DNA from: Dehalococcoidia bacterium | GTDB taxonomy: Bacteria; Chloroflexota; Dehalococcoidia; WHTO01 | Direction: 5' to 3' | DNA length: 64,000 bases | Assembly: GCA_040902555.1 (NCBI GenBank) | Contig: JBBDXC010000001.1 | Span: 150,662 to 214,661 of the forward strand | Shown here: positions 2,619 through 47,179 of the stretch, piece after piece | Numbering within the stretch: position 1 is the first letter of the stretch | Layout of the letters: every line of letters begins with the position of its first letter | The notes under the pieces: generated by a model | Told to the model about the DNA's origin: nothing | The model's database searches: none | The model's input: the letters and a program-made list of their open reading frames with translations, nothing else | Translations under genes and position numbers: made by a program

Positions 2619-3932
2619 TTAAGCGACGGCGGGTGCGCCGAGTGAGGACTGAGCCTTGAGGACGTAGGTCGTCATCGTGTCGGTCAGGTCGAGTGCCACG
2701 CCCATGCGGGCTCCCAGCCCTGAGATCAGCCCCATTACGCGGCCAATGAGCAGGAACTCCGTCGGGATGTCGACCAGCGGGTTCTCGCGCAGTACTGCCA
2801 TCATCCTCACGTTCATCTGACGCGTCAGCTCGCGGCGCGGCGTGCTGGTGTCGCTCATACTGCGGGCGAACATATCGCCGACGGCTTCGAGGGCATCGAC
2901 GCTGTCGATTCTGGTGCGGAAGCCCATGCCGCGCAGCGCGCGGCCGATCAGCTTGCGGTCGCGAATGACCATGGCCCAGGTGAGCTCGACGTAGGCGCGA
3001 CGAAATTGCTCGTCGAGGTCCTTGCAGAGTCCGAAGTCGAGAAGGACGATGCGCGGGCCGGGCTGGACCAGGATGTTGCCGGGGTGGGGGTCTGCGTGGA
3101 AGAAGCCATCGACCAGGACCTGCTGCATATAGGCCGTCACGATTTGCCGCATTACCTGCTCGGGCTCAGCGCCGATAGATTCAATGCCGCGCCGGTCCGT
3201 CGCCTTGACGCCCTCGATGTACTCCATGACCAGGAGGCGCCGCGAGCTGTGCTCCCAGACGATGGCCGGCACGACGATCCCGGGGTCGTCGGCGAAGTTT
3301 CGCGCGATGCGCTCGGCGTTGCGGCCCTCGTTGACGAAGTCGAGCTCCTGGGAGGCGGCGAACTGCAACTCGTCGACGAAGGAGCCCAGGTCGAACTCCT
3401 TGAGCCAGAGGCGCTCAGCCGCTTTGGCGATCAGGCGGATGTTCCGCAGGTCGACCTTGACGATCTCCTCGATGTCCGGGTACTGGGCCTTGACCGCCAC
3501 CTGGCGGCCATCGCGGAGGCGCGCCCGGTGCACCTGGGCCAGCGAGGCAGAGGCGATGGGGATCGGGTCGAACTCCGGGAAGACCTCCTCGAGGGGGCGG
3601 CCCAGCTCGGCATCGATGACGGTGCGGATCTCAGCGAAGGGGCGCGGCGGGACGTCGTCGTGCAGCTTGCTGAGGACCTCGACGTATTCGTCGGGGAAGA
3701 GGTCTGCGCGGGCGCCCATGACCTGGCCAGCTTTGATCATCAGGCCTTTGGTACTGGTCGCCAGCTCGAGGAAGCGGCGGGCGCTACCCCTGTGCTGGCC
3801 GGCCAGGCGCCGCTCCTTGACCTCCTCGGGGACGCTGCGGCTGCGCAGGTTGGTCGCGCGATATCCTGCGTAGATTGCGCCGGCTGCGTAGAGGACGCGC
3901 GCCGAGCGCACGGCGCGCTGGACAGGGTTCAA
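2619..3932 (-). CDS. ABC1/UbiB-family atypical protein kinase.
   Basis: ABC1 kinase core motifs: GQVHRA, DFVNEG, HADPHPGNILV, LLDFGL. Proposed TTG start at 3932 overlaps the upstream aminotransferase TGA (TTGA). The longer ORF to 4178 overlaps that gene and is rejected. Confidence 0.75.
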   Translation of the reverse strand: MNPVQRAVRSARVLYAAGAIYAGYRATNLRSRSVPEEVKERRLAGQHRGSARRFLELATSTKGLMIKAGQVMGARADLFPDEYVEVLSKLHDDVPPRPFAEIRTVIDAELGRPLEEVFPEFDPIPIASASLAQVHRARLRDGRQVAVKAQYPDIEEIVKVDLRNIRLIAKAAERLWLKEFDLGSFVDELQFAASQELDFVNEGRNAERIARNFADDPGIVVPAIVWEHSSRRLLVMEYIEGVKATDRRGIESIGAEPEQVMRQIVTAYMQQVLVDGFFHADPHPGNILVQPGPRIVLLDFGLCKDLDEQFRRAYVELTWAMVIRDRKLIGRALRGMGFRTRIDSVDALEAVGDMFARSMSDTSTPRRELTRQMNVRMMAVLRENPLVDIPTEFLLIGRVMGLISGLGARMGVALDLTDTMTTYVLKAQSSLGAPAVA

Positions 3933-5161
3933 GCCGCTGAGGCCTCGTAGGTCTTCTGCAGGGCGACGCCCAGCCGGCGGATAGCCTCGGGGATGTCGTC
4001 GAGGGCGATGTACGAGTAGGCGAGGCGCACGAAGTTGTCGCGGTCCTCGTCGGAGAAGAAGCTGTCGCCGGGGACGACCACTGAGCCTTCGCGATAGGCA
4101 GCGCTGCTCACCTCCTGGGAGGTGTGGCCGGGTTTGAGCTCCAGCCAGATGAAGAACCCGCCTTCGGGCCGCGACCAACTGCAGTAGTCGGCGCAGTGCT
4201 CTTCAAGTCCGGCGAGCATGGCGTCGCGCTTGCTGCGGTAGAGGTCGATCATCTCCTGGCGGTGGCGCTCCATCGTGCCGTCGCGCATCAGCTCGACGAC
4301 CATCCTGGCCAAGAAGGGCGAGGTGCCCATGTCGAAGCGCAGGTTGATGAGGGCCTTTACGACTTCGGGGTCTGCCTGCGAGTAGCCGAGGCGGAGGCCT
4401 GTGGCGATGATCTTCGAGAAGGTGCCGATCCTGATCACGCCCTCGCCGCCGGCGAGCGTGTAGAGCGATGGGAGATCCTCGCCATCGAAGCGCAGGCCAT
4501 CATAGGCGGCGTCCTCGACGATGATGGCGCCGTACTCGCGGGCTATCTCAACCAGCTCGCGCCGGCGGTCGAGCGTCATCGTCACGCCGGCGGGGTTGTG
4601 AAAGTTGGGGATGGTGTAGATCAGCTTGAGCGGGGCGCCACTGGCGCGGACGGCCTCAGCCGTCTCGCGCAGGGCTTCCGTGACCATGCCCTTTTCGTCG
4701 AGGGCGACGCCATGGATGATGGCGCCCGGTCCGCGGAAGGACCTGATCGAGCCGGAGAAGCTGGGGTTCTCGACGATCACAGCGTCGCCGCTATCGAGGA
4801 AGGCGCGGCAGACGTTGTCGAGGGCCTGCGCCGACCCGTTGGTGAGCATGAAGTGTTCGCGGGTCAGCTCGATGCCCTCGGTGCTGCCGATCCAGGCGGC
4901 GAGCTCCTGGCGCAGCGGTGGAGGGCCCTGGGGCCCGCCGTACTGGAGGGCGAGCTTGGCCTCCTCCTCCTGGCTCATGACGGCGCTGGTGGCTTCGGCG
5001 ATGGCGGCGAAGGGCAGGGCGGCAGGGTCGGGGACGCCGCCGGCGAGGATCAACAGCGGGACCGACGGCGGCGCGGCGCTGGCCGGCAGCCAGGACCGCA
5101 CGCCCTGGGCCTGTTTGGAGAGCAAGCGCTCGTGGAAAGGGGGAGATTGGACTTCGGTCAA
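3929..5161 (-). CDS. PLP-dependent aminotransferase, class I/II (fold type I).
   Basis: Length and motifs fit AAT-family aminotransferases (…GTFSKIIATGLRLGY… with the Schiff-base Lys region). First gene of a two-gene operon with the UbiB-like kinase. Confidence 0.8.
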   Translation of the reverse strand: MTEVQSPPFHERLLSKQAQGVRSWLPASAAPPSVPLLILAGGVPDPAALPFAAIAEATSAVMSQEEEAKLALQYGGPQGPPPLRQELAAWIGSTEGIELTREHFMLTNGSAQALDNVCRAFLDSGDAVIVENPSFSGSIRSFRGPGAIIHGVALDEKGMVTEALRETAEAVRASGAPLKLIYTIPNFHNPAGVTMTLDRRRELVEIAREYGAIIVEDAAYDGLRFDGEDLPSLYTLAGGEGVIRIGTFSKIIATGLRLGYSQADPEVVKALINLRFDMGTSPFLARMVVELMRDGTMERHRQEMIDLYRSKRDAMLAGLEEHCADYCSWSRPEGGFFIWLELKPGHTSQEVSSAAYREGSVVVPGDSFFSDEDRDNFVRLAYSYIALDDIPEAIRRLGVALQKTYEASAA

Positions 5162-5362
5162 GGTGGCTTCCCTTCAAGGCTAGTGAGTGCATTCCAATCA
5201 TTACAGACCTTGTTCAGCGGAGGACGTTTACCCCACCCCCGGCCCCTCCCTCTCCATTGGCGAGTCTTCGACCGTAAACAGGGAGGGGAGAAGGGGAGAC
5301 GACCTCACCCCCGCTGTCTCCCCCGCCCAGGCGGGCAGGCAGGCGACTCTTCGAGCGGCTGG

Positions 5363-5385
5363 CCCTCTCCTTGCCAAGGAGAGGG
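5363..5385. repeat. 23-bp palindromic (REP-like) element, copy A: ccctctccttgCcaaggagaggg.
   Basis: Perfect inverted repeat read directly. An identical copy lies at 5509..5531. Confidence 0.8.
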
Positions 5386-5406
5386 GAGAGACGGGGGGCT
5401 GGGGGA

Positions 5407-5487
5407 TTGAACCATTTGAACCTATTGAACCATTTGAACCTATTGAACCATTTGAACCTATTGAACCCTTTGAACCGTTTGAACCGC
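5407..5487. repeat. Tandem array of nine 9-bp units TTGAACCNT (18-bp super-period ttgaaccat/ttgaaccta x3, then ttgaaccct, ttgaaccgt, ttgaaccgc).
   Basis: Counted unit by unit: 5407-5415, 5416-5424, ... 5479-5487. Non-coding; ORF 5187..5645 (EPFEPIEPFEP...) is just its translation. Confidence 0.9.
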
Positions 5488-5508
5488 TGACCCTGGGACC
5501 TCACCCTG

Positions 5509-5531
5509 CCCTCTCCTTGCCAAGGAGAGGG
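5509..5531. repeat. 23-bp palindromic (REP-like) element, copy B, identical to 5363..5385.
   Basis: ccctctccttgccaaggagaggg, preceded by cctcaccctg. Together with copy A it brackets the 9-mer array. Confidence 0.8.
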
Positions 5532-5607
5532 TTTCCCACGCCAGGCGCGCAGGCGGGCGGGAGAGGGGAAAGAAAGGGCACGGGCAGGGATTCCGTCATC
5601 GTTAGTT

Positions 5608-5730
5608 GGCCTTATTTCGCGTTATTTGGCGTTATTTGGGCTTAGTGGGCGCGGGGCCGGGGGCTTAATCGGGCTTATTTGGCGTTAGCGGGGCTTATCG
5701 GGGGCTATTCGGCGTTAGATTGCGTTAGCT
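5608..5730. repeat. Degenerate tandem array built on GCGTTA(TTTGG)/GGCTTAT(TTGG/CGGG) units.
   Basis: gcgttatttgg, cgttatttggg, gcttaatcggg, gcttatttggcgttagcgggg, cttatcggggg, ctattcggcgttagattgcgttagctggg. About 10 imperfect units. Confidence 0.6.
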
Positions 5731-5868
5731 GGGAAAACTTTTTGTTTTTCGGTCGAGGGCTCCTCCTTGTCGCGAAGCCGGGGGTTTTGATCGGGGTTGT
5801 TCGCGAGGTCCGGCTCCGGTTGTTTGATCGATGCTTGGGTCATTTCAGATTCGGCAGGTGGTTGTTGG

Positions 5869-5895
5869 GTTGTTTGAGTTGTTTGAGTTGTTTGA
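5869..5895. repeat. 3 x GTTGTTTGA perfect tandem repeat, plus a degenerate unit upstream (gttgttggg).
   Basis: Units at 5869-5877, 5878-5886 and 5887-5895. Confidence 0.8.
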
Positions 5896-6075
5896 TCTGT
5901 TGCAAGCAGAGAGGTCTCCAGAGGCGACTCTGCGAGGGGAATGGCGGGGAGAGAGGCGGCGGACGCTGTTGGCCTTCGACCAGGGGTGTGGTTCTGCCGC
6001 GGGAGGGATAGCTGGGTTGGGACGAAGCGTCACACGGAGATTGTTAGGGGCCGAGGCGTCAGATCCTGTCGTTGG

Positions 6076-7011
6076 CTACAGAACGTCGCGCACGCGGAGG
6101 TAGATGTCTCCGGTCTGCGCAGCATGGCGGCGCTTTCTCAAGAGGAGATCGTCAAGCTTGATCCTGCCTTCAAGTACAGCGATCAGATCTTCGCCATCCA
6201 TGAGCATCACCAACCGACGACCAGATGAAAAGGCGGTCACGGAATCAGGCGAGAAGCCATTTATTGAAACAAACAGGCCCAGAGTGTTATCAAGGCGGCG
6301 CTCCACCTTGCCCTTAAGCGCATCCAGAGCCTCACGGTCAGTCGGCTCATTCCTCCAGCGAGCTTCGATCAGATAGTCGGTGCCCTCGAAGCCGAACATG
6401 CCGTCAATTTGTTCGCCTGTAACCCTGAATGATTTCTTGGGGTCCAGGTCGAACAGGTCGAAAAGGTCGTGGAGAAGCTTTTCGAGCGCGTAGCCTCGCG
6501 GGACAGGCCTTGTCTTGAAGAGGTCGGAGTAAAGCGTTTTGAGTTGGGTAAGTTGAGATGTGAACTCAGCAATTCGGGTCCGCTGGGCCTCCGCGGACAA
6601 CCGGCGGCGCTCTATCTCGTCAGCTTCGCGGACCAAGTCTTGGTGGCGGGCCGCAAACGGGCGGAGGGCCTCCACGGCTTCACGAGCCGCCTTTTCCCGA
6701 ACCGCACTGTCCTCAAGCCGCGCGAGATGCGGAAAGGATGTGATCTCAGCCACCTGAGCGATGAGCCAAAGGATGTCGTCCTGGTATTTCTGGGGCGCGG
6801 ACGCAAGGAAGTCGACAACAAAGGAAGCTGTGTCCCTTTTTGCTCCTTCCCAGTTCGTCGTAGCGAGTACCGCGTGGCCGGGAAGCGCGTCATGTAGGAA
6901 GATCCTGAGATCCCGCTTGTACCAGAACACAACGGCGAGGGCGTGCTTTAACGCGGTGAGGGCGGCCGCCGAGACCCGGCGTTCATGTAGAGACGCGCTC
7001 ATTGAGCACAT
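6076..7011 (-). CDS. Restriction-endonuclease-like (Mrr-type PD-(D/E)xK) domain protein with uncharacterised N-terminal domain and central coiled coil. Last gene of the type I R-M operon.
   Basis: C-terminal half: ...LEKLLHDLFDLFDL...VTGEQIDGMFGFEGTDYLIEARW..., a D...E-x-(K/R) nuclease core with Mrr_cat-like layout. Central heptad-like Arg/Glu-rich segment (DLVREADEIERRRLSAEAQRTRIAEFTSQLTQLKTL). Co-oriented 33 nt downstream of hsdM. AT-richer than the surroundings. Confidence 0.5.
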   Translation of the reverse strand: MCSMSASLHERRVSAAALTALKHALAVVFWYKRDLRIFLHDALPGHAVLATTNWEGAKRDTASFVVDFLASAPQKYQDDILWLIAQVAEITSFPHLARLEDSAVREKAAREAVEALRPFAARHQDLVREADEIERRRLSAEAQRTRIAEFTSQLTQLKTLYSDLFKTRPVPRGYALEKLLHDLFDLFDLDPKKSFRVTGEQIDGMFGFEGTDYLIEARWRNEPTDREALDALKGKVERRLDNTLGLFVSINGFSPDSVTAFSSGRRLVMLMDGEDLIAVLEGRIKLDDLLLRKRRHAAQTGDIYLRVRDVL

Positions 7012-7044: not shown

Positions 7045-8556
7045 CTAAAGCAATGCCCTTAGGGACTTGATTGCTTCGTCGACTTCGCGGCCTTTTTGCT
7101 CGATGATGTCCAGCAGCTCTTCGGGGGTGCGTGTGTCCTCGTCGGACTTGCGGTTGGGGTTTACCGCTTTGAGGTCGTAGTTTCGGGCCTCAAGCTCTTC
7201 GCGGGTCACTGTCCAGCTGCGCTCGCTGTCGGCTCGCTCCGGCAAGAGTCGGAAGAAATCCTCAAAGCGTTCGAGCGTCAGCGGCGTTTTCTTGCCGACC
7301 TTGATGTTGGAGAGGTCGTAGTACCAGACCTTCTCGGTTGGGCCGCCGCGGGTGAAGAAGAGGAGATTCGTTTTGACGCCGGCGCCGGCGTTGACGAAGG
7401 CGCCTCCCGGCAGGCTGACGATGCACCAGAGGTCGGTGTCGTTAAGCAGCTTGCGCTTGGTCTGGACGAAGGCGGTCTCGTTGTTGCGGAAGAGGACGCC
7501 CTCATCGACGACGATGCCGGCGCGGCCACCGGGCTTGAGGCTGTCGATGACGTGCTGCAGGAAGAGGACCTGGGTGGAGCCAGTCTTGTAGGGGAAGCGG
7601 GTCTGCGCCTCTTTGCCTTCCTTGCCGCCAAACGGAGGATTCATCAACACCACGTCGTAGAGGTCCGGTGAGCCGTGAAAGAGGCCGCCGTAGGTCTCGG
7701 CGCCGGTCAGGGTGTTGCCGTGCCAGATGTGCGGCTCATCGATGTTATGGAGGACCAGGTTGGCCAGGGCGATGGGATAGATCTGGTTGTCTTTCTCGCG
7801 GCCGAAGAAGGTCTCGTGCTTCAGGACGTCAAGCTGATCGCCCGACTCGATGTTGGCGTTGCCCGGACCGGCCATGTGCTGAAACGACTGGGCCAGGAAA
7901 CCGCCGGTGCCGCAGCCCGGGTCGTAGACCGACTCGCCAATCTTGGGGTCGACGACGCTGACCATGGCGCGGATGATCTCGCGCGGGGTGAAGAACTGGC
8001 CGCCGTCGTTGCCGCGCTCGCCCATTTTGAGCAGAAGTCCTTCGTAGACCTGGGACAGCGGGAAGACGTGGGTCGGGTCGATGGTCTCGTCGGTGATCTG
8101 GTCGACCTTGTCGAGAATGTCGAGGAAGTTGCGCTCGCTGTCGACGCGAGTGCGCTCGACGCCGGACATGATCTGGCTGATGACGCGCTGTCGGGCCGTG
8201 GCGTGTGAGCTGTGGTTGAGGCCGCGCAGGTGAGGCAGCAGGTCGCCGTTGATGAAGGCGAAGAGATCCCCCAACGTCCCGCTCTCGAGCTCTACCCGCT
8301 TTCCGCCATTGGGTGCTCCCCAGTCCTGCCAGCGGTAGGGTGCCTCAAGGGAAGGCGAGAAGGCTGCGGCTACCGCTTCCGCTTCTTCGGCGTCCTTCGT
8401 TTCTCGCTCGTCGAGGATGCGTAGGAAGAGCATCCACGTCAGCTCGGGGACGTACTGGAGGGCCCCGGCGCAGTTAGAGCGGCGCATGATGTCGCAGATG
8501 CCCTTTACGAGGCCATCGACCGACTGACGAGATTGACGGACGCTATTGACCACCAC
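7045..8556 (-). CDS. hsdM: Type I restriction-modification system, N6-adenine DNA methyltransferase subunit HsdM.
   Basis: NPPFG catalytic motif (VVLMNPPFGGKEG), SAM-binding region, HsdM-like N-terminal domain. GTG start at 8556. Confidence 0.9.
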   Translation of the reverse strand: MVVNSVRQSRQSVDGLVKGICDIMRRSNCAGALQYVPELTWMLFLRILDERETKDAEEAEAVAAAFSPSLEAPYRWQDWGAPNGGKRVELESGTLGDLFAFINGDLLPHLRGLNHSSHATARQRVISQIMSGVERTRVDSERNFLDILDKVDQITDETIDPTHVFPLSQVYEGLLLKMGERGNDGGQFFTPREIIRAMVSVVDPKIGESVYDPGCGTGGFLAQSFQHMAGPGNANIESGDQLDVLKHETFFGREKDNQIYPIALANLVLHNIDEPHIWHGNTLTGAETYGGLFHGSPDLYDVVLMNPPFGGKEGKEAQTRFPYKTGSTQVLFLQHVIDSLKPGGRAGIVVDEGVLFRNNETAFVQTKRKLLNDTDLWCIVSLPGGAFVNAGAGVKTNLLFFTRGGPTEKVWYYDLSNIKVGKKTPLTLERFEDFFRLLPERADSERSWTVTREELEARNYDLKAVNPNRKSDEDTRTPEELLDIIEQKGREVDEAIKSLRALL

Positions 8557-9728
8557 TACGCGCGGGCTCCAATCGCCGTCTCGGCCAGGACAGACGCCAA
8601 CTCCCCGGCAGCCCGATCGACCCCTATTGCGGCGTCCCGGATGCGGCCCATTCCGGCCTCAACGAGACGAAATCGGTCAGTAAGCCGAATCTGGTCCGAA
8701 ATCGACGGCAGCGGGACCCGCTCCTCGCGGAGGACAGCGCCGCTAACAATCGGCTGGCCGCCGCCGCGGGCCGCGCTCTCCTGACGCAGCGCAAGGTAGC
8801 GGTAGCGGAACCAAGCTTGCAGAAAATACGAGTCAAATCTGGCCGGCTCGGGGAGAATGCCAAACGCATTTTGACTACAGGTAGAAGGTATGCGAAGGAT
8901 GCCAGTACGCCCTCTGGTTTGGCCTTGGCCCACCATTGCGACAAAAAGTGTGCCGGGGGGAAAGAGCCGCAGATTGTGATCGACCACGGCGGTTTCGCTT
9001 ATGTGCTGGGACGTTTGCCAAACGTCGGCGTCTCTCAATTCAGTCGTGGTAAGCCATGGCACGTCGCCGACGAAGTACTCGGGGTGCACTCGTGACGGAG
9101 TCGAGCCGCTCTTTGTTTCCGCGAAGTCCCCTAGCCGGTGACGCGGCCACCGGGCTGCCTCGCCCTCCTCGAAAACGGCGCGAAGGTAACCGGCTGGAAG
9201 TTGTTTGGCGGCTTCGAGGCGAGCCTGGCTGGCGGCGCGGGCGTTATCTAGCAGGCCCAGTTGCTGCTCCAGCTTCCTAACGATGCGTCTCTGTTCCGGC
9301 AACGAAGGCAATACGAATTCCAACGACTCCAAGTCACTCCTGCCGATGGCTGAAAAGGTGCTCCCACTGCCACGAGCAGCAATATCCTTTTCGCGTGAAC
9401 GCAGCACCCACAGCGCATAGCGTTGATCGAGGCTCGGACCACACCGAATTGCCGCGAGACCCCTGCCAATAGCGGATTCGGTGTCGGCCACGTTGGTCGG
9501 CCCAACCGGCGCACGAACTGAGATTAGAATGTCCCCTGGTTGCGCTATGCAGACCGGATCGGTGCACCATATCCGCGCGATGGGGTGCAGCGAGCCAAAG
9601 TCGGCCTTGCCTTGAAAGAAGGGAAGGCCCTCAGGCTTTGTGCGATAAGTGGAGCCAGGCGGCGACTGGCCCGCGACGATGGTCGCCACGTCCCCCAGCC
9701 GCACATTCGAGGCGCCATACGTCGTCAA
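8556..9728 (-). CDS. hsdS: Type I R-M specificity subunit HsdS.
   Basis: Two target-recognition-domain repeats with conserved central and C-terminal helical spacers (…LPEQRRIV.KLEQQL… / …SISDQIRLTDRF…). TTG start overlaps the hsdR TGA (TTGA). Confidence 0.85.
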   Translation of the reverse strand: MTTYGASNVRLGDVATIVAGQSPPGSTYRTKPEGLPFFQGKADFGSLHPIARIWCTDPVCIAQPGDILISVRAPVGPTNVADTESAIGRGLAAIRCGPSLDQRYALWVLRSREKDIAARGSGSTFSAIGRSDLESLEFVLPSLPEQRRIVRKLEQQLGLLDNARAASQARLEAAKQLPAGYLRAVFEEGEAARWPRHRLGDFAETKSGSTPSRVHPEYFVGDVPWLTTTELRDADVWQTSQHISETAVVDHNLRLFPPGTLFVAMVGQGQTRGRTGILRIPSTCSQNAFGILPEPARFDSYFLQAWFRYRYLALRQESAARGGGQPIVSGAVLREERVPLPSISDQIRLTDRFRLVEAGMGRIRDAAIGVDRAAGELASVLAETAIGARA

Positions 9729-12121
9729 GCGGAGAACATCCGGGACTTGGTCTCGGCCAGAACCTCGACGGGTTTTCCGGCCAGTCGAAGCGCTTTAACG
9801 CCACCGGCTCTGTCTACCGCCGGAACGCTAAATATCTCCGGGTTCTCGATACCCTCAGTGCCGGCGCGCGCAAACTGCTGAGCGATCGCCTTGATCGCGG
9901 CAGCAGCCTGATCAGGCATCCCATCCAGCCAGCGGGAGTGCTTGTAGTCGAAGGCGTCCGTCCGGTGTTTCCTGGTTAGCGGATTTAAGCCGTAGCCGAT
10001 CTCGCCCAGGACGTCGTAAAGGTCGTACTCCTTCATGTTCTCAAGTTCCCTGATAACGGATGCCGAGCGGCCGCCGTCTGGCAGGGCGTTCAGCAGCTCC
10101 CGGCGGTGATCCGGGAGCACCCAGATGTCACGAAAACCGTCCAAGGTGGCTGCTTCCTTCGTCAGGCTTTCGGCCACCATCCCTTTGTACTCCTCGACGG
10201 TAACCGGCGTGGCCTTGCCATCGACACTGGTTAGGATATAGCGGCCGGCGTCGCTGATCCTGACCTCGAAGCCCTCGACCTGTATGGTCCTTTCGCTGTT
10301 GCCTTCATCGGCTTGGTCTTCGGCTGACCCTGAGGGCTCGTCGGTCGTCCGTGTCCCGGGGCTACTGATAAAGTCTTTGCCGAAGAGACGGGTGGCGTTT
10401 GTGTAGTCGTAGACGCGAAACATCAGCTTGGCCGTTTGCGGGTGCAGGCGCGTGCCACGGCCGACCATCTGGTAGAAAGCGATCGGCGACTTCACGTACT
10501 TGAAGAAGACGATGTTGCGGACGATGGGGACGTCGACCCCGGTTGTGAGAAGGTCAACTGTCGTGGCGACGAAGTGACTTCGGGACGAATCTCGTAACTC
10601 CGGCAGGAAGTCATTGCCGAAACTCGCGGCCGTGCATTTGAAGGCATAACTCTCCAGGGGCTTCTTACCCTCGTCCTTACACCACGCTGCATACCAGTTG
10701 TTGAGGCGGATCGCGACCTGTTCGGCGTGGCTGTCGCGAGCGCAGAAGATGATTGTCTTTTGCTCGGGGCCGCCCGTCCGCACCAGGTGACTGAAGAGAT
10801 CGTTGGTCATGCTGTTTACACGCTCAGGAAGCTGGATGCGGTCCTCGAAATCGGGAGCTAGGTACTTCTCACGTACGTCGGATATCGATAGGACTTCCCC
10901 AGTAATCGTGTCAACCAGCTTCTTCCCTTTCAGGTCCGTGTGGGTCAACTCGCTCTCGCGCTCGTTTGCAGGCTGACCGACAAACCAGGGGTCGCGGCGA
11001 ATTATCTCGCAGGCGGCCAGGTAGCCGTCCTCGATGCCCTGGGCGATGTCGTACTCGTAAACGGGCTCCCCGAAGTGGCGGATGTTGTCGGCCTGTATAG
11101 CGAGGTCCACCACCGCGTCCTCGGCGGATTCGGCTACATCGAGGCGGCGTGGGGTGGCCGTGAGGCCAATCTGCACAGCGTCCGGGTTGCGGGTCAGCAA
11201 CTCAGACCACTTGCCCCATGCCGACCGGTGACATTCGTCGATGACGATGTGAGTGAAGTAGTTCTCGGGGTAGTGCGTCCGCAGGAACGAGCTGTCATCC
11301 TCGTCGCTGGCGACTCCCAGGGTCTGGTAGGTAGCGACGTGCACGCGGGCGTTCTTCGCCTTGTTCCGACCGCCGTACTCCTGCTGAACAAGCGCCGCGT
11401 TGCTGCCGAACTCCTGGTTGAGCGCCGCGTGCCCCTGTGTCCGCAGTTCGTCGCGGTCACAAACAAAGAGCGCGCGTCGCATTTGACCAGCGTCGTCGAT
11501 GCGCTTAAGGAGGTTGACCGCGATCTTTGTTTTCCCAGACCCCGTGGCCAGAGAGAGTAGGGCGCGTTTCTCACCCCGCGCCAGCTTTTCGAGGACCGCG
11601 CGGATGGCCGCGTCCTGGTAGTAGCGGATCGAGGCCTGACCGCGAGGATACGGGACCGAGAGGGGCGCTGCGGATGGGTCTGTGAGGCGGAAACCCTTGA
11701 GCTCCTCGTAGCGGTGTTGCAGCTCTTCCGGGGTAGGGAAGGCTGCAATGGGGAGCGGCTCCGAGGTCAAGCTGGTGCCCGCGTCGTACTGCACGAATTG
11801 GTGGCCGTTGCTGGTGAAGGCGAAGGGCAGGTTAAGCCGCTTTGACGCGGCGTAGAGCTTGACCTGCTCGAGGCCGTAAGCGGGCGGGAGATGCTCGGCC
11901 TTGGCCTCGATCAAGGCGACGGCTACCGGGTGACCATCGGGGCGGGCTTTGACGCGCAGGGTGTAGTCGACGCGGCCATGGCTGCGGCGGCGGGCGCGGC
12001 CCTCGGCTATGTAGATGCCGCCGTCCGTCTCCTCGCGGCGGATCATGTCCTCGGTCCAGCCCCGGGCGTAGAGGGCAGGGTCGATGAGCCTGGCTCTGGT
12101 GTCGGCTTCGGAGAGTGTCAT
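9725..12121 (-). CDS. hsdR: Type I R-M restriction subunit HsdR (PD-(D/E)xK nuclease + SF2 helicase).
   Basis: N-terminal HsdR_N nuclease (VDYTL…VALIEAK). Walker A LSLATGSGKT, DECH box (IVIDECHRS), motif VI (QMVGRGTR). Confidence 0.9.
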   Translation of the reverse strand: MTLSEADTRARLIDPALYARGWTEDMIRREETDGGIYIAEGRARRRSHGRVDYTLRVKARPDGHPVAVALIEAKAEHLPPAYGLEQVKLYAASKRLNLPFAFTSNGHQFVQYDAGTSLTSEPLPIAAFPTPEELQHRYEELKGFRLTDPSAAPLSVPYPRGQASIRYYQDAAIRAVLEKLARGEKRALLSLATGSGKTKIAVNLLKRIDDAGQMRRALFVCDRDELRTQGHAALNQEFGSNAALVQQEYGGRNKAKNARVHVATYQTLGVASDEDDSSFLRTHYPENYFTHIVIDECHRSAWGKWSELLTRNPDAVQIGLTATPRRLDVAESAEDAVVDLAIQADNIRHFGEPVYEYDIAQGIEDGYLAACEIIRRDPWFVGQPANERESELTHTDLKGKKLVDTITGEVLSISDVREKYLAPDFEDRIQLPERVNSMTNDLFSHLVRTGGPEQKTIIFCARDSHAEQVAIRLNNWYAAWCKDEGKKPLESYAFKCTAASFGNDFLPELRDSSRSHFVATTVDLLTTGVDVPIVRNIVFFKYVKSPIAFYQMVGRGTRLHPQTAKLMFRVYDYTNATRLFGKDFISSPGTRTTDEPSGSAEDQADEGNSERTIQVEGFEVRISDAGRYILTSVDGKATPVTVEEYKGMVAESLTKEAATLDGFRDIWVLPDHRRELLNALPDGGRSASVIRELENMKEYDLYDVLGEIGYGLNPLTRKHRTDAFDYKHSRWLDGMPDQAAAAIKAIAQQFARAGTEGIENPEIFSVPAVDRAGGVKALRLAGKPVEVLAETKSRMFSA

Positions 12122-12228: not shown

Positions 12229-13665
12229 ATGTTTGACACCCTTTCCGACCGCCTGCAGGCGGTATTCGGCCGGCTCGGCCGCAGCTCCAAGATCACCGAG
12301 AAGGACCTCGACGATGCCCTGCGCGAGGTCCGCGTGGCGCTGCTGGAGGCCGACGTCAACTTTAAGGTCGTCCGCGGCTTCATCAACGACGTGCGTGGGA
12401 AGGCGATCGGCGCCGAGGTCACGAAGAGCGTCACGCCGGTCCAGCAGGTGATCGCCATCGTCAACGACGAGCTGGTCGGGATGCTGGGCGGCGAGCAGGC
12501 CACCCTGGCCATGTCGTCGAAGCCCCCTACCGTCCTTGTATTGGTGGGACTCAAAGGGGCTGGCAAGACCACGACAGCGGCAAAGCTGGCGGCGCACCTG
12601 CGCAAGCAGGGAGGCAAACCACTCCTGGCTTCCGTTGACCGCCAACGTGTCGCCGGCGCCGAGCAGCTCGCGTCTCTGTCGCGGCAGTTGGGCGTCGAGT
12701 TCTACTCGCGCGACGCGAAGCCGGACGAGATCGCCCGCGAATCCGTGCTGGAGGCCGCCAAGCGCGGCTCGTCCGTCGTGATCATCGACACGCAGGGCTA
12801 CGTCGAGCTGACCGAAGACGTCGTCAGTGACCTGGGCAAGCTGCGAGACGCCGTCAAGGCCAACGAGATCCTGCTGGTCGCCGACGCCATGACGGGCCAG
12901 GAGGCCGTGAACGTAGCCCAGGAGTTCAACGAAGCCCTGGGCCTGACCGGCCTGATCCTGACGAAGGTCGACAGCGACGCGCGAGGTGGTGCAGCCCTTT
13001 CGATCCGCGCCGTTACCGGCGTGCCAATCAAGTTCGTCGGCACGGGTGAGAAGACAGACGCCCTAGAGCCGTTTTATCCCGACCGCTTCGCCTCGAGGAT
13101 TCTCGGCATGGGTGACGTCGTTTCACTGGTCGAGAAGGCGCAGGAATCGATCGACGAGGACCAGGCGCGGCGGATGGAGGAGAAGCTACGCAAAGGCTCC
13201 TTCGACCTCCAGGACTTCTCCGATCAGCTTCAGCAGGTGCGGAAGATCGGGCCGATGGCCCAGGTCCTTGGCATGCTGCCGGGGTTCGGCCAGATCAAGA
13301 AGCAGCTCAGCGAGTCGCAGCTCGACGAGAGCCAGTTCAAACGGGTGGAGGCGATGATCTCCTCGATGACAGGCCCCGAGCGCCGCCAGCCCGACCTGCT
13401 GGAGCGCAACGGCGGCCGCCGGCGCCGCGTGGCCGACGGCAGCGGGACAAGCCTGGCCGACGTCAACCGGCTGCTCAAGCAGTTCGGCGAGGCCAAGAAG
13501 CTGATGGAAGCGATCAGCAGCGGCCGCATACCCAAGAACATGGCGGCGATGATGCAGGGCATGGAGGGCGGCAACGGCGCTGACGTGCAGGTGGGGGCGG
13601 GAACAAAGGCCAATATGGCCGGGCAGCTATCGCGCCGCCAGCTGCGCAAGCAGCGCCGCCACTAG
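12229..13665 (+). CDS. ffh: Signal recognition particle protein Ffh.
   Basis: N domain, SRP54 G domain (GLKGAGKTTTAAKLA, DTQG, TKVD), Met-rich M domain (MAAMMQGMEG). Confidence 0.9.
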   Translation: MFDTLSDRLQAVFGRLGRSSKITEKDLDDALREVRVALLEADVNFKVVRGFINDVRGKAIGAEVTKSVTPVQQVIAIVNDELVGMLGGEQATLAMSSKPPTVLVLVGLKGAGKTTTAAKLAAHLRKQGGKPLLASVDRQRVAGAEQLASLSRQLGVEFYSRDAKPDEIARESVLEAAKRGSSVVIIDTQGYVELTEDVVSDLGKLRDAVKANEILLVADAMTGQEAVNVAQEFNEALGLTGLILTKVDSDARGGAALSIRAVTGVPIKFVGTGEKTDALEPFYPDRFASRILGMGDVVSLVEKAQESIDEDQARRMEEKLRKGSFDLQDFSDQLQQVRKIGPMAQVLGMLPGFGQIKKQLSESQLDESQFKRVEAMISSMTGPERRQPDLLERNGGRRRRVADGSGTSLADVNRLLKQFGEAKKLMEAISSGRIPKNMAAMMQGMEGGNGADVQVGAGTKANMAGQLSRRQLRKQRRH

Positions 13666-41813: not shown

Positions 41814-43754
41814 TCAGGGGATGCTGGTTACGGTTTCGCAGCCAGCGGCGGCTTCGCCGCCGAGGAAGCTGTCGGGGTTGGCGCCGCCGTGGCACTTATC
41901 GTTGGCGCCGTTCTCGCCGGCAAGCCTGTCCTGCCCGGGGCCGCCGAGGAGGGTGTCATTGGCGTCGCCACCCTTGAGCCTGTCGTTGCCGAGCCTACCC
42001 TCGATTTTGTTGATCGCCGTTGAACCGGTGATCTTGTCGTTGCCGTCGCCGGCGCGGACCCGCTCAACCGAGATGAGGCGGACACCGGCGCCCTCGCCGC
42101 TGGCGGCGCCCGTGGCCAGATTTATGACGCGGCCGAGGTCCCCTGTGAATAGGGCGGTGTCGGTGCCGGCGCCGCCATTGATGGTGTCCTGGCCGGCGCC
42201 GCCGTTGATTGTGTCGTTGCCGGTCCCGGAGCAGATGAGGTCGTTGCCGCCCTTGCCGTTGATCGTGTCGGCACCGCTGAGGCCGAGGATGACATCGACT
42301 CCCGGCGTGCCATTGAGCACGTTGGCGGCGTTGTCGCCGGCGATGGTCTCCGGTTTGCCCTGGCAGAAGCGTGCTTCGAAGGCGCCGATGTCGCAGCTAT
42401 TGCCCTGTGGCCGGGGGATGCCGCGCTGGTCGCGCTTGTTGACCGTGTTCATATCGTCGCACGTTGTGTCATCGCCCTTGTTGAGCGCGGGGCTGCCCGC
42501 CAGCAGGGCATGGGTTAGCGTGGGACCGCCGTTGTCCTGTAAGGGCCCAAGCAGCGGGTCGGTGGAGGGCTGGTCACTGAGCTGATCGAGGTTGCAGGTG
42601 CCATCGCCGTCGATGTTGTTGCCCGCGGAGATGATGTTTCCTTCGCAGTCATCGAAGGTCTTCTGGTCAGTCCCGTCGACGATCGTGTTGCGCAGCGTCA
42701 TGCTGGAATTGCCCGCGAACAATTCTGTTTTGCCATTGAGACGGATGGTGCTGTTGGTGACGGTGGCTGTGCCGCCGCTCAGCCCTATGGCCCCTGCGTT
42801 GCTGCTGCTATTCATGCTGAGCGTGCTGTTAACGACGGTCAGCACTCCGGTATCTGTCTCGACGGCTCCGTTGCTGGCGGACGCAACGTTGTTTGTGAAA
42901 AGGCTCTGGATGATGTCGAACGACGCGCCGTTGTTGAAGATGCCGCCGGCGCTGTGGGCGTTGTTGTCGGCAATGGTGCTGCGGACCAGGTCAACGCTGC
43001 CGAGGGCGCCGTCGTTGTAGATGGCGCCCCCGTCCGCGGCGTCATCGTTTGCTGAAGCCGGCCCGTTGGAGACGATCGCCGAGGCGGTGATCCTCAACGT
43101 GCCCAGGTTGTAGATGCCACCGCCCCTCGGGTCGGAGAAGCTTTCGTCGGTGCCGACGTTGTCTGCGATCAGGCTGTTCATGATTGTCAGGTTGCCGGTG
43201 TTGTTGTTGTGAATGCCGGCACCGTCGTTAGCGGTCGCGTTATCCCTTACGGCGACGTTGTCGAGGGTCAGGAAGCCGGAGTTCCGCAGCCCGCCGCCGA
43301 GGTCGACGTCGTAGCCATTCTGAATGGTGAGGTTGGACATGGTGACTACCGAGGTGCCGATGGCAAAGAGACGGCTGGCATCGCCGCCGTCGATCAGCGT
43401 GATGTCCCGTCCGGCGCCGACGATGTTCAGGCTGCTGTCGGGAATCGTAATCTGGCCGTTATCCACAGTAAACGTGTCGGGGCCGGGCGCGCCGAGGTCG
43501 GGGATGACGATGTCGTCCGGGCTGCCGCTGACGTTGAGGGCAGTGGCGATCGCCCCGCGTAGCGAACAGTCGTTGGCCACGTTGTCGAAACAGTCATCCG
43601 GCACCGGTGCGATGGGGTCGTCGGTCCGATCGACCGTGTAGACGGCGGCGAGAACCCTCTCAGGCTGCGACAGCTGAAGCCCGAGGAGGAGCGCCAAAGC
43701 GACAACGCCAAGAAGTGACAGGCCCAGCCTCGAGAGTCGCAGCGGACGGTTCAT
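41814..43754 (-). CDS. Secreted right-handed beta-helix (Pmp/GGAI-repeat) protein with CSLREA-like N-terminal cap and RTX-type calcium-binding C-terminal module. Paralog 1 of 3.
   Basis: Signal peptide. CSLRGAIATALN cap. GGGIYN/GGAIYN Pmp-like repeats. C-terminal GGxGxD nonapeptides ending …CETVTSIP. Confidence 0.7.
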   Translation of the reverse strand: MNRPLRLSRLGLSLLGVVALALLLGLQLSQPERVLAAVYTVDRTDDPIAPVPDDCFDNVANDCSLRGAIATALNVSGSPDDIVIPDLGAPGPDTFTVDNGQITIPDSSLNIVGAGRDITLIDGGDASRLFAIGTSVVTMSNLTIQNGYDVDLGGGLRNSGFLTLDNVAVRDNATANDGAGIHNNNTGNLTIMNSLIADNVGTDESFSDPRGGGIYNLGTLRITASAIVSNGPASANDDAADGGAIYNDGALGSVDLVRSTIADNNAHSAGGIFNNGASFDIIQSLFTNNVASASNGAVETDTGVLTVVNSTLSMNSSSNAGAIGLSGGTATVTNSTIRLNGKTELFAGNSSMTLRNTIVDGTDQKTFDDCEGNIISAGNNIDGDGTCNLDQLSDQPSTDPLLGPLQDNGGPTLTHALLAGSPALNKGDDTTCDDMNTVNKRDQRGIPRPQGNSCDIGAFEARFCQGKPETIAGDNAANVLNGTPGVDVILGLSGADTINGKGGNDLICSGTGNDTINGGAGQDTINGGAGTDTALFTGDLGRVINLATGAASGEGAGVRLISVERVRAGDGNDKITGSTAINKIEGRLGNDRLKGGDANDTLLGGPGQDRLAGENGANDKCHGGANPDSFLGGEAAAGCETVTSIP

Positions 43755-43756
43755 CG

Positions 43757-46700
43757 TTACGGGATGCTCGTGACGACTTCGCAGCCGGCGCTAACGGCGG
43801 AGCCGCCGATGAACGTGTCGGGGTTGGCGCCGCCGTGGCATTTGTCGTTGGCGCCGTTCTCGCCGGCGAGCTTGTCCTGGCCGGGGCCGCCGAAAAGCTT
43901 GTCATTGGCGTCGCCGCCCCTGAGCCTGTCGTTGCCGAGCATGCCTTCGAGCCTGTTGATTGCCGTTGATCCCGTGATCTTGTCATTGCCGTCGCCGGCG
44001 CGGACGTGCTCGATAGAGGTGAGGCGCACCCCGACGCCCTCACCCGAGGCCGCTCCGGTGGCGAGGTTGATGGTGCGTGCCAGGGTTCCCGGGAACAGGG
44101 CTGTGTCAGGGCCGCCGCCGCCATGGATGGTGTCCTGGCCAGGGCCGCCGTCGATCCTGTCGGCCCCACCCTCGCCGAAGATCTGGTCGCCACCCGCACC
44201 GCCATTGATGATGTCGTTGCCTGCGCGGCCGCAGATCAGGTCCTGGCCGCCCGCACCGTTGATCGTTTCCCCGGCGGCTGTCCCGACGATGACGTCGGCG
44301 CCGTTGGTGCCTTGAATTAGACCGTCGGTATCCTGCCAGATCGTGGCCTTCTGACCGCCGCAGCTGGGGCGGTTGTCGCTGCCGTCGCAGGCGTTGCCGG
44401 CGCCATCCTGGTCGACGTCCTCCTGCCCGGGATTGGCGTTTTCCGGGCAGTTGTCCTGCTCGTCGAGGATGGTGTCGCTGTCGTGGTCGGTCTCCGGGCA
44501 ACCGTCGCCGTCGCCGACGCCGTCGAGGTCTTCAGGCACCAGGGGGCAGGCGTCGTTCTGGTCCTCGACCAGGTCCGCATCGGCGTCGGTTTCGGGGCAG
44601 CCGTCCGTGTCCTCGACGCCGTCGAGGTCTTCGGGCGTGTCGGGGCAGCCGTCGCTGCCATTGGCGATCCCATCGCCGTCCCTGTCCGGGTCGCAGGCGT
44701 CGCCCGCTCCGTCGCCGTCATTGTCCTCCTGGCCGGCGTTGGCTGTGGTTGGACAGTTGTCGGCGGGTGCAACCTGGCAGTCGGAGGGGCCGTCCGTGGC
44801 TGCGCCCGGGTTGCAGATGCCGTCGCCGTCAGCGTCGACCTGGAGCGCGGAGCAGCCGCTGGCGTCGACTGTGGCCCCTGAGGCCGTGTTCGGGCAGAGG
44901 TCGACCCCGTCGTCAACGTCGTCACCATCGGCGTCCGTAATCGGCGTGATCGTGACCTCGTCGTAGTCGTCCTCGGTGGTGACGCCGTTATTGGGAATGG
45001 AGTCAGGGTCCCAGCGGTCGTTGGCGGTGACTTCAGCCGTGTTGGTGACATCGGAAAGCGTATCTACGGTGGCCACTATCGAGAGAGTGGGCGCAGTCCC
45101 CTGCAGCACCTGACCCACGGTCCAGACGCCGTTGCCCGGGTTGTAGGTGCCCTGAGCAGCGGCGTGCGATACGTAGGTCAGCCCGGCAGGAAGCAAGTCC
45201 GTGACCGTCACGTTCTCTGCTTCATCTGTGCTGTTGGCCTGGTTGTGCGTGAGCGTCAGTGTGAAGGTGATGCTCTGGCCCTCGGTGGGCGTCGAGTCGG
45301 TCACTTCTTTATCAAGCTCCAGGTCGGCCCTCGTGCCGGTGATGAATGTGCATGCGGAAAACTCGGAGGTGTTACCGGTGGGGTCGGTGGCTGTGGCGGT
45401 AACGCCTTCTCCGGGCGTCAGAGGCGCGTTGGTGAGGAAGCTGTCTGTACCGCTGGCTGGATAACTGCCATCCGCGTCGGTAAGAACCGTCAGAGTTTTG
45501 ATCAGGGTCTCGCCTTCGCCGAAGGCAGGCGCCACGTTGCAAACTCCGACGAAGAAATCGAGGTCATAGCTCTTGTTCGGCTCGCTCTGCAGGCTGAAGG
45601 TCACGGTTGTGGCTGTACCGGTACTGGCGGCGGTTGCTATGTCCGGGAAATTCTGCAGGTTGTTGGGGCCGCCATCGCTGTCGTTGTTGACGTCGGCGTC
45701 GTTGTTGGTCACGCCGTTATCGGCGAGGTCGATGCCAAGGCCCAGGTTGCCGAAGATGGAGTTTCCGCGGATCCTGTTGTTCGTCGCTAGATCCGAAGGC
45801 GTGTTACCGACGAGCACTGCGTCGCCCTGGTTCCCCTGGATCCGGTTGCACGCCCCGGTGCAGCCATCCTCCGGGGTCAAGCCAGTCGTGCCCCCGATCG
45901 TGTTGTCGTGGGCGCCGTTACCGATGAAAACACCCAAGCCGTTGCCGCCCACGTTCCCACCGCCGGCGGCGGGGCCGATGTAGTTGCCCTGGATCGTATT
46001 GTTCTTGGTCTGCAGGCCGGACAACTGAACGCCGTCGCCGGTGTTGCCTGAAATCACGTTACGCGCGGCGGGGGTGGTCCCGCCGACGGTTGTCCCGCTG
46101 GTCTCGAAGTTGGAGCCCGCCGGCGAAATCGCAATGCCCACGAGGTTGGCGATGGCCGCGGTACCGTTGACGTCGACGCCGATGAAGTTGCCGGCGATTA
46201 CAGCGCTGTTTGGACCGATGCTGGTCCCCTGCACCGCGATGCCGATGCTGCCGTTACCGGAGATCAGGTTGCAGGAACCGCTGCAGGGTCCATCGGGGTC
46301 GGTACCGGTTTCGCCGCCAATTTGGTTACTGGGCGACTGGATCAAGATCCCGCGGCCGCCGTTGCCGAGGTCCGCGATGCCGTCTTTGTCGGTGCCGATA
46401 TAGTTGCCCCTGACGAAGTGCCCACCCGAGCCGGTGAGTATGATGGCATCCTCTGTGTTGCCTGAGATAACGTTGCGGTCGGCGGCGGTTGTACCTCCGA
46501 TAATGTTCCCTGTCGAACCGGTTTGAACAACAATCCCGAGTGAACCAGCGTTGCCGACGGCAGTCCCGGTGGCGTCCGTCCCGATGTAGTTGCCGGCGAT
46601 GATGTTGCTGCCATTGGTGGCGATGTTGAGCCCCGCGCCGGCAGAGTGGTTGATGACCAGGCCACCTATCGTGCTGCCGCCGGCTGTGATAAACAGGCCG

Positions 46701-47152: not shown

Positions 47153-47179
47153 GGATGCGCAGCGACTAACCGGCGTCCG

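Follow-up and report, generated by a model that had tools for sequence, protein, structure and literature searches.

A family of EAD8-like/coiled-coil/Mrr-type nucleases as candidate single-gene defence effectors

What does a small nuclease gene do at the end of a type I restriction–modification (R-M) operon, and does it serve that operon or act on its own? The question is raised by a 64,000-nt stretch of Dehalococcoidia bacterium DNA (GenBank assembly GCA_040902555.1, contig JBBDXC010000001.1, positions 150,662 to 214,661), hereafter called the window, in which an intact and genuine open reading frame (ORF) at 6076–7011 of the reverse strand encodes a protein of 311 amino acids (aa). This protein combines an EAD8-like helical bundle, a long, probably coiled-coil helix and an Mrr-type nuclease domain. 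We estimate a probability of about one half that it is a stand-alone DNA nuclease, controlled by oligomerisation, that serves in defence against mobile elements. An alternative start at 7002 (M4, the second in-frame methionine) was chosen in the NCBI model, which is 308 aa long; the NCBI protein (P0001) is 100% identical and was deposited as 'MAG: restriction endonuclease [Dehalococcoidia bacterium]'. The gene and its parts are the following:

6076–7011, reverse strand: whole gene, EAD8-like/coiled-coil/Mrr-type nuclease (ORF list; 311 aa, ATG at 7011, stop codon at 6076–6078)
6718–6984, reverse strand: N-terminal five-helix bundle (aa ~10–98), EAD8-like/death-fold-like adaptor domain as judged from AlphaFold2 (AF2), Pfam matches of relatives and Foldseek
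6514–6708, reverse strand: single long alpha-helix (aa 102–166), probable coiled coil (AF2 helix and periodicity)
6172–6507, reverse strand: Mrr-type PD-(D/E)xK nuclease core (aa 169–280; Pfam Mrr_cat, AF2 core, Foldseek)
6358–6483, reverse strand: predicted active-site residues E177 (6481–6483), D203 (6403–6405) and E216-A-R218 (6358–6366), from conservation
6079–6162, reverse strand: conserved basic C-terminal helix and tail (aa 284–311, LLLRKRRHAAQTGxIYL; alignment and AF2 helix)

The C-terminal half is an Mrr-type PD-(D/E)xK nuclease domain and a member of the Mrr_cat superfamily, as the initial annotation of this DNA had proposed. Pfam Mrr_cat (PF04471) matched aa 174–279 at 27 bits (gathering score 21; E = 5e-6), covering 108 of the 115 model positions. 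The AF2 model, built from a 35-sequence alignment with a mean predicted local distance difference test (pLDDT) value of 89.2 for the whole protein, contains an alpha-beta-beta-beta-alpha-beta core (helix 169–186, strands 196–198, 201–208 and 211–218, helix 226–238, strand 243–249). Both this order of elements and the Foldseek neighbours in the PDB, with MspJI (4f0p) at E = 7e-4 and also the cA3-bound nuclease Cdn1, FokI, NucS/EndoMS and RPB5, identify the restriction-endonuclease fold. Searching the PDB by sequence with the full-length protein yielded a chance match alone (E = 1.4), and NCBIfam assigned no family to it.

Conservation of the putative active site was assessed in an alignment of 200 relatives. 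E177 in helix 1 is kept in 199 of them, whereas D203 in strand 2, E216 in strand 3 and W219 are found in all 200; at position 218, canonically a lysine, 179 relatives carry Lys and 21 carry Arg, the window copy having the minority Arg. The D-x(n)-E-x-(K/R) geometry read from the letters was therefore correct, and the strings quoted for it are present at aa 196–219 (RVTGEQIDGMFGFEGTDYLIEARW) and aa 249–253 (SINGF). Beyond the Mrr_cat match, AF2 predicted a basic C-terminal helix at aa 286–300 ('LLLRKRRHAAQTG'), which is retained even in relatives whose N-terminus differs, and K293, R295 and G301 of the tail are near-invariant among relatives.

A nuclease domain of this kind raises the possibility that the protein is a modification-dependent type IV enzyme of the Mrr/MspJI kind, whose bundle would read modified or foreign DNA, whose coiled coil would dimerise it and which would complement the adjacent type I R-M system. 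The presence of Mrr_cat, the type IV enzyme MspJI as the best match among solved structures and weak PADLOC mREase_IV matches in 3 of 35 relatives all speak for it. We nevertheless consider it unlikely, because Pfam, NCBIfam and fold searches found no known reader of DNA modification (Mrr_N winged helix, SRA or similar) and the N-terminal domain resembles protein–protein adaptors instead.

The nuclease domain is preceded by an Arg/Glu-rich helix, modelled by AF2 as one unbroken element of 65 residues (aa 102–166) with a mean pLDDT of 89. In the 200-sequence alignment no segment is less conserved than this one (29% identity to the window protein), and its hydrophobic periodicity has a power of 0.53 at period 3.5 compared to at most 0.20 at other periods. 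The heptad-like helix noticed at the outset is thus borne out, and on pattern and model together the segment is probably a coiled coil.

The N-terminal domain is an all-alpha unit of ~90 residues in the AF2 model (helices 15–28, 32–42, 47–51, 58–70 and 73–88), and a domain-only model reached a pLDDT of 87.7 and a predicted template modelling (TM) score of 0.78. When 35 aligned relatives were scanned singly with Pfam, 27 matched EAD8 (PF19961) at E ≤ 0.1, always in the same register, with a best E of 1.2e-5 and top scores of 26.3 and 24.3 bits (gathering score, 27); EAD1 was also touched by six of the 35. Foldseek found no significant neighbour in the PDB, the top 15 being led by the PYD-like N-terminal domain of CENP-N (TM 0.54–0.58) and including the CARDs of Bcl10, Apaf-1 and Nod1 and the PYDs of NALP3 and NALP10. 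The initial annotation had set aside about 140 residues as matching no family. This was not borne out: the globular part already ends near aa 98, and most of the 35 relatives do match a family, EAD8, although the window copy itself does not.

EADs have been described as small non-catalytic adaptors, mostly all-alpha and death-fold-like, for which a homotypic coupling of effectors to core NTPases was proposed (Kaur et al. 2020, eLife, PMC7159879), and Mrr-like restriction endonucleases (REases) were named among the effectors of EAD systems in the same study. Profile–profile links tabulated in that literature connect EAD8, EAD1, EAD2 and EAD5 mutually and lead from EAD6 to a PDB CARD, and in 26 of 35 published architectures EAD8 stands at the N-terminus. 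In its AF2 model the present domain fits the EAD-type description, being small, non-enzymatic, all-alpha, N-terminal and fused to an effector domain. From the sequence matches of the relatives it is probably EAD-like and descended from EAD8. The initial annotation had considered a sensor or an oligomerisation domain; the predicted fold argues for an adaptor or oligomerisation domain, and a sensor role is conjectural.

How far has this architecture spread? A whole-protein search (clusters at 90% identity, E ≤ 1e-3, among 8000 scored candidates) returned 839 clusters of relatives, nearly all 300–317 aa long and 47–54% identical over 96–100% of the query. A scan of one genome per GTDB species placed the family in at least 567 species, with hosts that include Chloroflexota, Bacteroidota, Bacillota, Actinomycetota, Pseudomonadota, Planctomycetota, Gemmatimonadota, Acidobacteriota, Cyanobacteria and Saccharibacteria. 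The family is broad but patchy, with conservation over the whole length of the protein. Nor is the gene typical of phages, since no homologue was present in GenBank phages and only eight IMG/VR contigs carried one.

An exhaustive HMMER search of 1.84 billion representative proteins with a profile of the N-terminal domain yielded 502 matches. The best 150 of these were all at most 386 aa long, that is, the EAD8-like/coiled-coil/Mrr architecture or fragments of it, so that no alternative architecture of the N-domain was seen among them; canonical EAD8 proteins may be present in the weaker remainder. A word-indexed search with the same profile returned only short proteins of 77–173 aa; the two of these that were examined are not free-standing adaptors, P0124 being a fragment at a contig end and P0192 part of a split gene.

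Two relatives depart from the common plan. In a protein of 453 aa from the KSB1 lineage (P0097), a TIR domain has been added ahead of the N-domain, giving the order TIR, EAD8-like, coiled coil, Mrr. Its locus (L082 10001–11362) has no obvious partner, with housekeeping and toxin–antitoxin genes, CcdAB and a Phd-type antitoxin, nearby. PADLOC PDC-S66 matched this protein (3e-60; position within the protein unmapped), and the match most likely belongs to the TIR part, since it is absent from the other 34 relatives. This lineage suggests that adaptor and coiled coil serve as a scaffold for assembly that can also drive another effector dependent on oligomerisation; it would also better suit an abortive-infection effector than a restriction enzyme, a further point against the type IV alternative. 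On a Mesorhizobium mediterraneum plasmid (L087 4626–5483), a 285-aa 'restriction endonuclease' is 44% identical to aa 152–311, covering helix and nuclease, and has an unrelated, unannotated N-terminus of ~125 aa. The nuclease module therefore swaps N-terminal domains.

Split and shortened copies were also seen. In Bacillus wiedmannii (L097 4001–4910), the N-domain plus coiled coil and the Mrr domain lie on separate pieces ~10 nt apart, and at L022 9920–10909 the family gene is divided into two adjacent ORFs; these are either pseudogenes or naturally split versions. A related Mrr-type nuclease domain with 33–41% identity to aa 152–310 is very common on Klebsiella plasmids, being present in most of 1136 Klebsiella plasmid records, and on the Klebsiella pneumoniae plasmid NZ_CP146027.1 (L086 4911–5453) a 180-aa remnant abuts an ISKpn26 transposase gene.

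Broken copies of this kind (L022, P0192, the Klebsiella plasmids), together with the K218R substitution in the window copy and the fold similarity to NucS/EndoMS, are what could be cited for a housekeeping nuclease of DNA repair or recombination (NucS/EndoMS-like or resolvase-like) or for an inactive remnant. Such an origin is very improbable: the distribution is patchy, the context varied and the window copy lies in a low-G+C island, and an identity of ~50% over the full length across phyla argues for selection on the intact protein. The initial annotation had named a match to a housekeeping family or the loss of catalytic residues as grounds for giving up its idea; no housekeeping family matched the 311-aa protein in Pfam or NCBIfam, and the catalytic acidic residues are invariant.

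We then asked whether the gene keeps constant company, using 80 loci from the GTDB species scan (10 kb on each side) and the window, 81 loci in total. All-against-all clustering of 2691 neighbour ORFs revealed no conserved partner gene; the largest real cluster was present in 11 of the 81 loci and was not adjacent to the family gene. On one side, about a quarter of the copies have a same-strand gene at close spacing, and these neighbours are heterogeneous. The initial annotation had asked whether the gene always lies downstream of hsdM. This did not hold: tblastn with the HsdM, HsdS and HsdR proteins of the window, combined with neighbour clustering, placed type I genes within 10 kb in only ~7 of the 81 loci, and a conserved hsdM/S/R linkage, as expected of an obligate type I R-M accessory gene, was absent across the family.

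Defence genes do recur. Among 125 immediate neighbours, Pfam detected ResIII (8), SWI2_SNF2 (3), HSDR_N (2), Eco57I methylase (2), Mrr_cat (2) and integrase (2), and PADLOC detected type I, IIG and III restriction enzymes, HamB, GajA, AbiP2, SduA and several candidate systems. The gene stands directly behind a same-strand R-M enzyme gene in at least eight loci from different phyla (the window, L013, L019, L038, L042, L048, L055 and L056). This adjacency also speaks for a type IV enzyme, and has a precedent in E. coli K-12, where mrr adjoins hsdRMS. A full-length relative with 33% identity on a Delftia plasmid is flanked by an AbiEii toxin gene and a Qat system, with a Gabija-like pair beyond Qat, and AbiJ-like and KAP NTPase genes are found near the split copy of Bacillus wiedmannii. 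The picture is that of a mobile single-gene module that tends to occur in defence neighbourhoods, often trails R-M operons and is bound to none of them. The general architecture foreseen for the protein, a non-catalytic N-terminal domain joined to a nuclease in such neighbourhoods, is supported.

If the N-domain is EAD8-like, the nuclease might instead be recruited in trans, as envisaged in the EAD principle put forward by Kaur, Burroughs, Iyer and Aravind. A sensor of the STAND, iSTAND2 or GTPase type that carries EAD8 and is encoded at another place in the genome would detect the invader and activate the nuclease by EAD8–EAD8 contacts. Among the EAD8 partners already published are iSTAND2, nSTAND1+FGS, TIR+NACHT+FGS and AP-GTPase proteins, and the listing of Mrr-like REases as effectors fits this idea as well. 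We regard it as distinctly less probable than autonomous action, because there is no conserved partner gene and the N-domain, in its best 150 profile matches, is seen only in the Mrr-type nuclease architecture or fragments of it. A second copy of the N-domain was found neither within 10 kb in any of the 81 loci nor in the 64-kb window, the family-specific hidden Markov model used having a limited reach for canonical EAD8; EAD8 was likewise absent from the families listed for the 125 immediate neighbours and from eight large neighbours, and no gene for a STAND protein or an NTPase was detected in the window. Furthermore, an 'EAD8+REase' architecture is missing from the published Aravind-lab architecture tables, and the family occurs in many unicellular lineages, one of them with small genomes (Saccharibacteria).

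A STAND-like neighbour was seen at one locus only. In Micromonospora wenchangensis (L071 1351–5802, reverse strand), a protein of 1484 aa is encoded in divergent orientation 229 bp from the family gene, which can be counted in favour of recruitment in trans. This protein has HEAT repeats and matches NACHT and the nSTAND5 P-loop weakly; no EAD8 match was obtained for it at E ≤ 0.01.

How might a stand-alone protein of this design work? In the explanation that we prefer, the Mrr-type domain would be the catalytic part and the 65-residue heptad helix would pair the protomers constitutively, as a coiled-coil dimer or a higher oligomer. The EAD8-like, death-fold-like bundle would serve for homotypic clustering or for binding of a trigger, forming higher-order clusters with itself or on cue. 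Clustering would bring the nuclease domains together and thereby permit cleavage of double-stranded DNA, with destruction of the invader's DNA or abortive infection as the outcome. There are parallels: the PD-(D/E)xK cleavage domains of FokI and of the MspJI type need pairing to cut both strands, and CARD and PYD assemblies activate the effectors fused to them. The TIR-fused lineage, in which one scaffold may drive two effectors, fits the assembly model since TIR NADases also require oligomerisation.

A bolder version, which we put forward tentatively and regard as unlikely, is a minimal, sensor-less 'death-fold nuclease': the EAD8-like bundle would need no NTPase partner and would polymerise with itself or in response to a cue from the phage, and the coiled coil would relay this to the Mrr domain, in one lineage switching on a TIR domain as well, while the module spread horizontally through more than 15 phyla, often after R-M operons. 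If true, bacteria would have, in one polypeptide, a counterpart of the effector activation that CARD/PYD domains drive.

Several observations weigh against a stand-alone defence nuclease. A modification-dependent type IV enzyme would give the same picture at the sequence level. The catalytic activity of the window copy is uncertain, judging from its sequence, because R218 replaces the catalytic Lys. The window protein has no match to Pfam EAD8, its N-domain averaging 40% identity to the relatives, and the similarity of the relatives to EAD8 is itself sub-threshold; the structural matches of the N-domain to death folds have E > 1. Models of R-M and other defence proteins are matched by about a dozen of the 125 immediate neighbours (~10%), a rough estimate without a background control. 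Finally, we found no experimentally characterised family member in the literature.

The protein can be further placed by comparison with known systems. It shares with the Mrr/MspJI type IV enzymes the catalytic domain family, the E...D...ExK motif geometry (with Arg for the Lys in the window copy) and the fold, and both often lie beside type I R-M genes. Unlike them, it has a helical adaptor-like bundle and a 65-residue coiled coil in place of an Mrr_N winged helix or SRA-type reader. It is not an Mrr orthologue, as Mrr_N is lacking, nor is it Shedu or PDC-S02.

The likeness to the EAD-coupled NTPase systems (EAD8, PF19961; PMC7159879; PMC8195603) consists of a small non-catalytic all-alpha N-terminal domain on an enzymatic effector, recurrent sub-threshold sequence similarity and the death-like fold neighbourhood. 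The differences are that the defining paired EAD copy in an adjacent gene was not found in 81 of 81 loci, that the N-domain occurs with one architecture only (best 150 of 502 matches), that a long coiled coil separates adaptor and effector, and that the present family is not restricted to multicellular bacteria.

A different kind of resemblance links the family to Shedu (SduA, DUF4263). Shedu is a single-protein PD-(D/E)xK defence nuclease with variable N-terminal regulatory domains that is activated by a change of assembly. Common to both are the single-gene logic, the PD-(D/E)xK superfamily, a nuclease module with alternative N-termini and an expected control by oligomerisation, but the nuclease families differ, and neither the protein nor its 35 relatives matched SduA or DUF4263 in PADLOC or Pfam. 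The candidate system PDC-S02 of PADLOC has a weakly similar nuclease core (21 bits; aa 204–279 against model positions 243–317 of 346), and nine of the 35 relatives match it. This covers ~75 residues, whereas the N-terminal two-thirds do not match, and the two are not the same family. A PADLOC match to Cas11a was discarded as spurious.

Mrr-like nucleases and EAD-linked effectors were thus both known from Kaur et al. 2020 (PMC7159879), and what is new is the stand-alone EAD8-like/coiled-coil/Mrr architecture, which is absent from the tables of that study and from PADLOC 2.0. The family is widespread and tractable, yet not conceptually surprising. If the assembly model holds, it would be among the more widespread uncharacterised single-gene defence candidates and would offer a simple test case for the homotypic assembly of bacterial death-like adaptors, an idea whose arguments have so far come mostly from what surrounds the genes of large multi-gene NTPase systems. 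A protein of ~300 aa that consists of a single adaptor, a single coiled coil and a single nuclease is experimentally tractable. For annotation, 'restriction endonuclease' or 'hypothetical protein' could be replaced by a defined three-domain architecture.

Does the gene nevertheless belong to the operon at whose end it lies in the window? Upstream of it are three genes of a type I R-M system:

7045–8556, reverse strand: hsdM, type I R-M methyltransferase, directly upstream in the operon (Pfam N6_Mtase, 1.9e-57, and HsdM_N; PADLOC MTase_I, 1.8e-183)
8556–9728, reverse strand: hsdS, specificity subunit (Pfam Methylase_S in two stretches; PADLOC Specificity_I)
9725–12121, reverse strand: hsdR, restriction subunit resembling the EcoAI family (type IB), first gene of the operon (NCBIfam restrict_EcoAI; Pfam ResIII, EcoEI_R_C and HSDR_N)

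The hsdR product scored 438 bits with restrict_EcoAI, under the model's cutoff of 550. The order is hsdR-hsdS-hsdM-nuclease gene, the last being the fourth of four same-strand cistrons. The hsd genes form a complete set whose stop and start codons overlap by 4 and 1 nt, and a gap of 33 nt separates hsdM from the nuclease gene. As the gap is this short and a scan of the junction found no promoter or terminator consensus site, the nuclease gene is likely co-transcribed with hsdM.

The arrangement invites an analogy with PrrC, a suicide anticodon nuclease embedded in a type I R-M locus (EcoprrI). By this analogy, the nuclease would guard the linked system: the Hsd complex would keep it inactive until a phage anti-restriction protein released it. 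The operon's layout makes the idea attractive for the window locus, and in L013, L038, L042 and L048, which come from different phyla, the gene again brings up the rear of type I enzyme genes; the idea is without family-wide support, and we think it improbable. Most copies look monocistronic and lie among unrelated genes, type I genes are as infrequent nearby as reported above, and no similarity to PrrC or RloC was detected with PADLOC or NCBIfam. What the two cases share is an extra nuclease gene that lies with hsd genes and is probably transcribed together with them; the proteins are unrelated in fold and target, and in the present family the hsd linkage is not conserved.

The four genes and a 0.9-kb non-coding stretch have a G+C content of 0.57–0.64 compared to 0.65–0.68 in the flanks, forming a lower-G+C island of ~7 kb bounded by an aminotransferase gene (3929–5161) and ffh (12229–13665). 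The type IB R-M system and the nuclease gene look like a small, horizontally acquired defence islet, which for this genome the gene would mark. The other large ORFs of the window that were scanned encode housekeeping proteins (aminopeptidase N, glpK, glpD-like, topA, gatB, an ABC-transporter binding protein) or an RTX-repeat protein.

Downstream of the nuclease gene, the non-coding stretch (5162–6075), with a G+C content below that of the flanks, contains several unrelated short tandem repeats: an 18-mer (ATTGAACCATTTGAACCT, 4.4 copies, 5406–5485), a 10-mer (CGTTATTTGG, four copies, 5600–5639), a 30-mer (two copies, 5660–5718) and a 9-mer (GTTGTTTGA, four copies, 5861–5895). Neither an Rfam match nor a convincing ORF was found in it, and the Rfam scan of the locus as a whole gave no match. 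This stretch may be a scar or boundary of the island.

Further away, RTX calcium-binding repeats, thrombospondin type 3 repeats and DUF11 are found in three successive large ORFs of 646, 1131 and 1232 aa on the reverse strand at 41814–50878. These have the look of a gene cluster for repeat proteins that are secreted or surface-exposed, with no relation to the nuclease gene. A reverse-strand ORF of 257 aa at 816–1589 probably encodes a cell-surface protein; its N-terminus is signal-like, its long linker is rich in Thr and Pro (TPTPTATPT repeats), and a hydrophobic segment lies at the C-terminal end.

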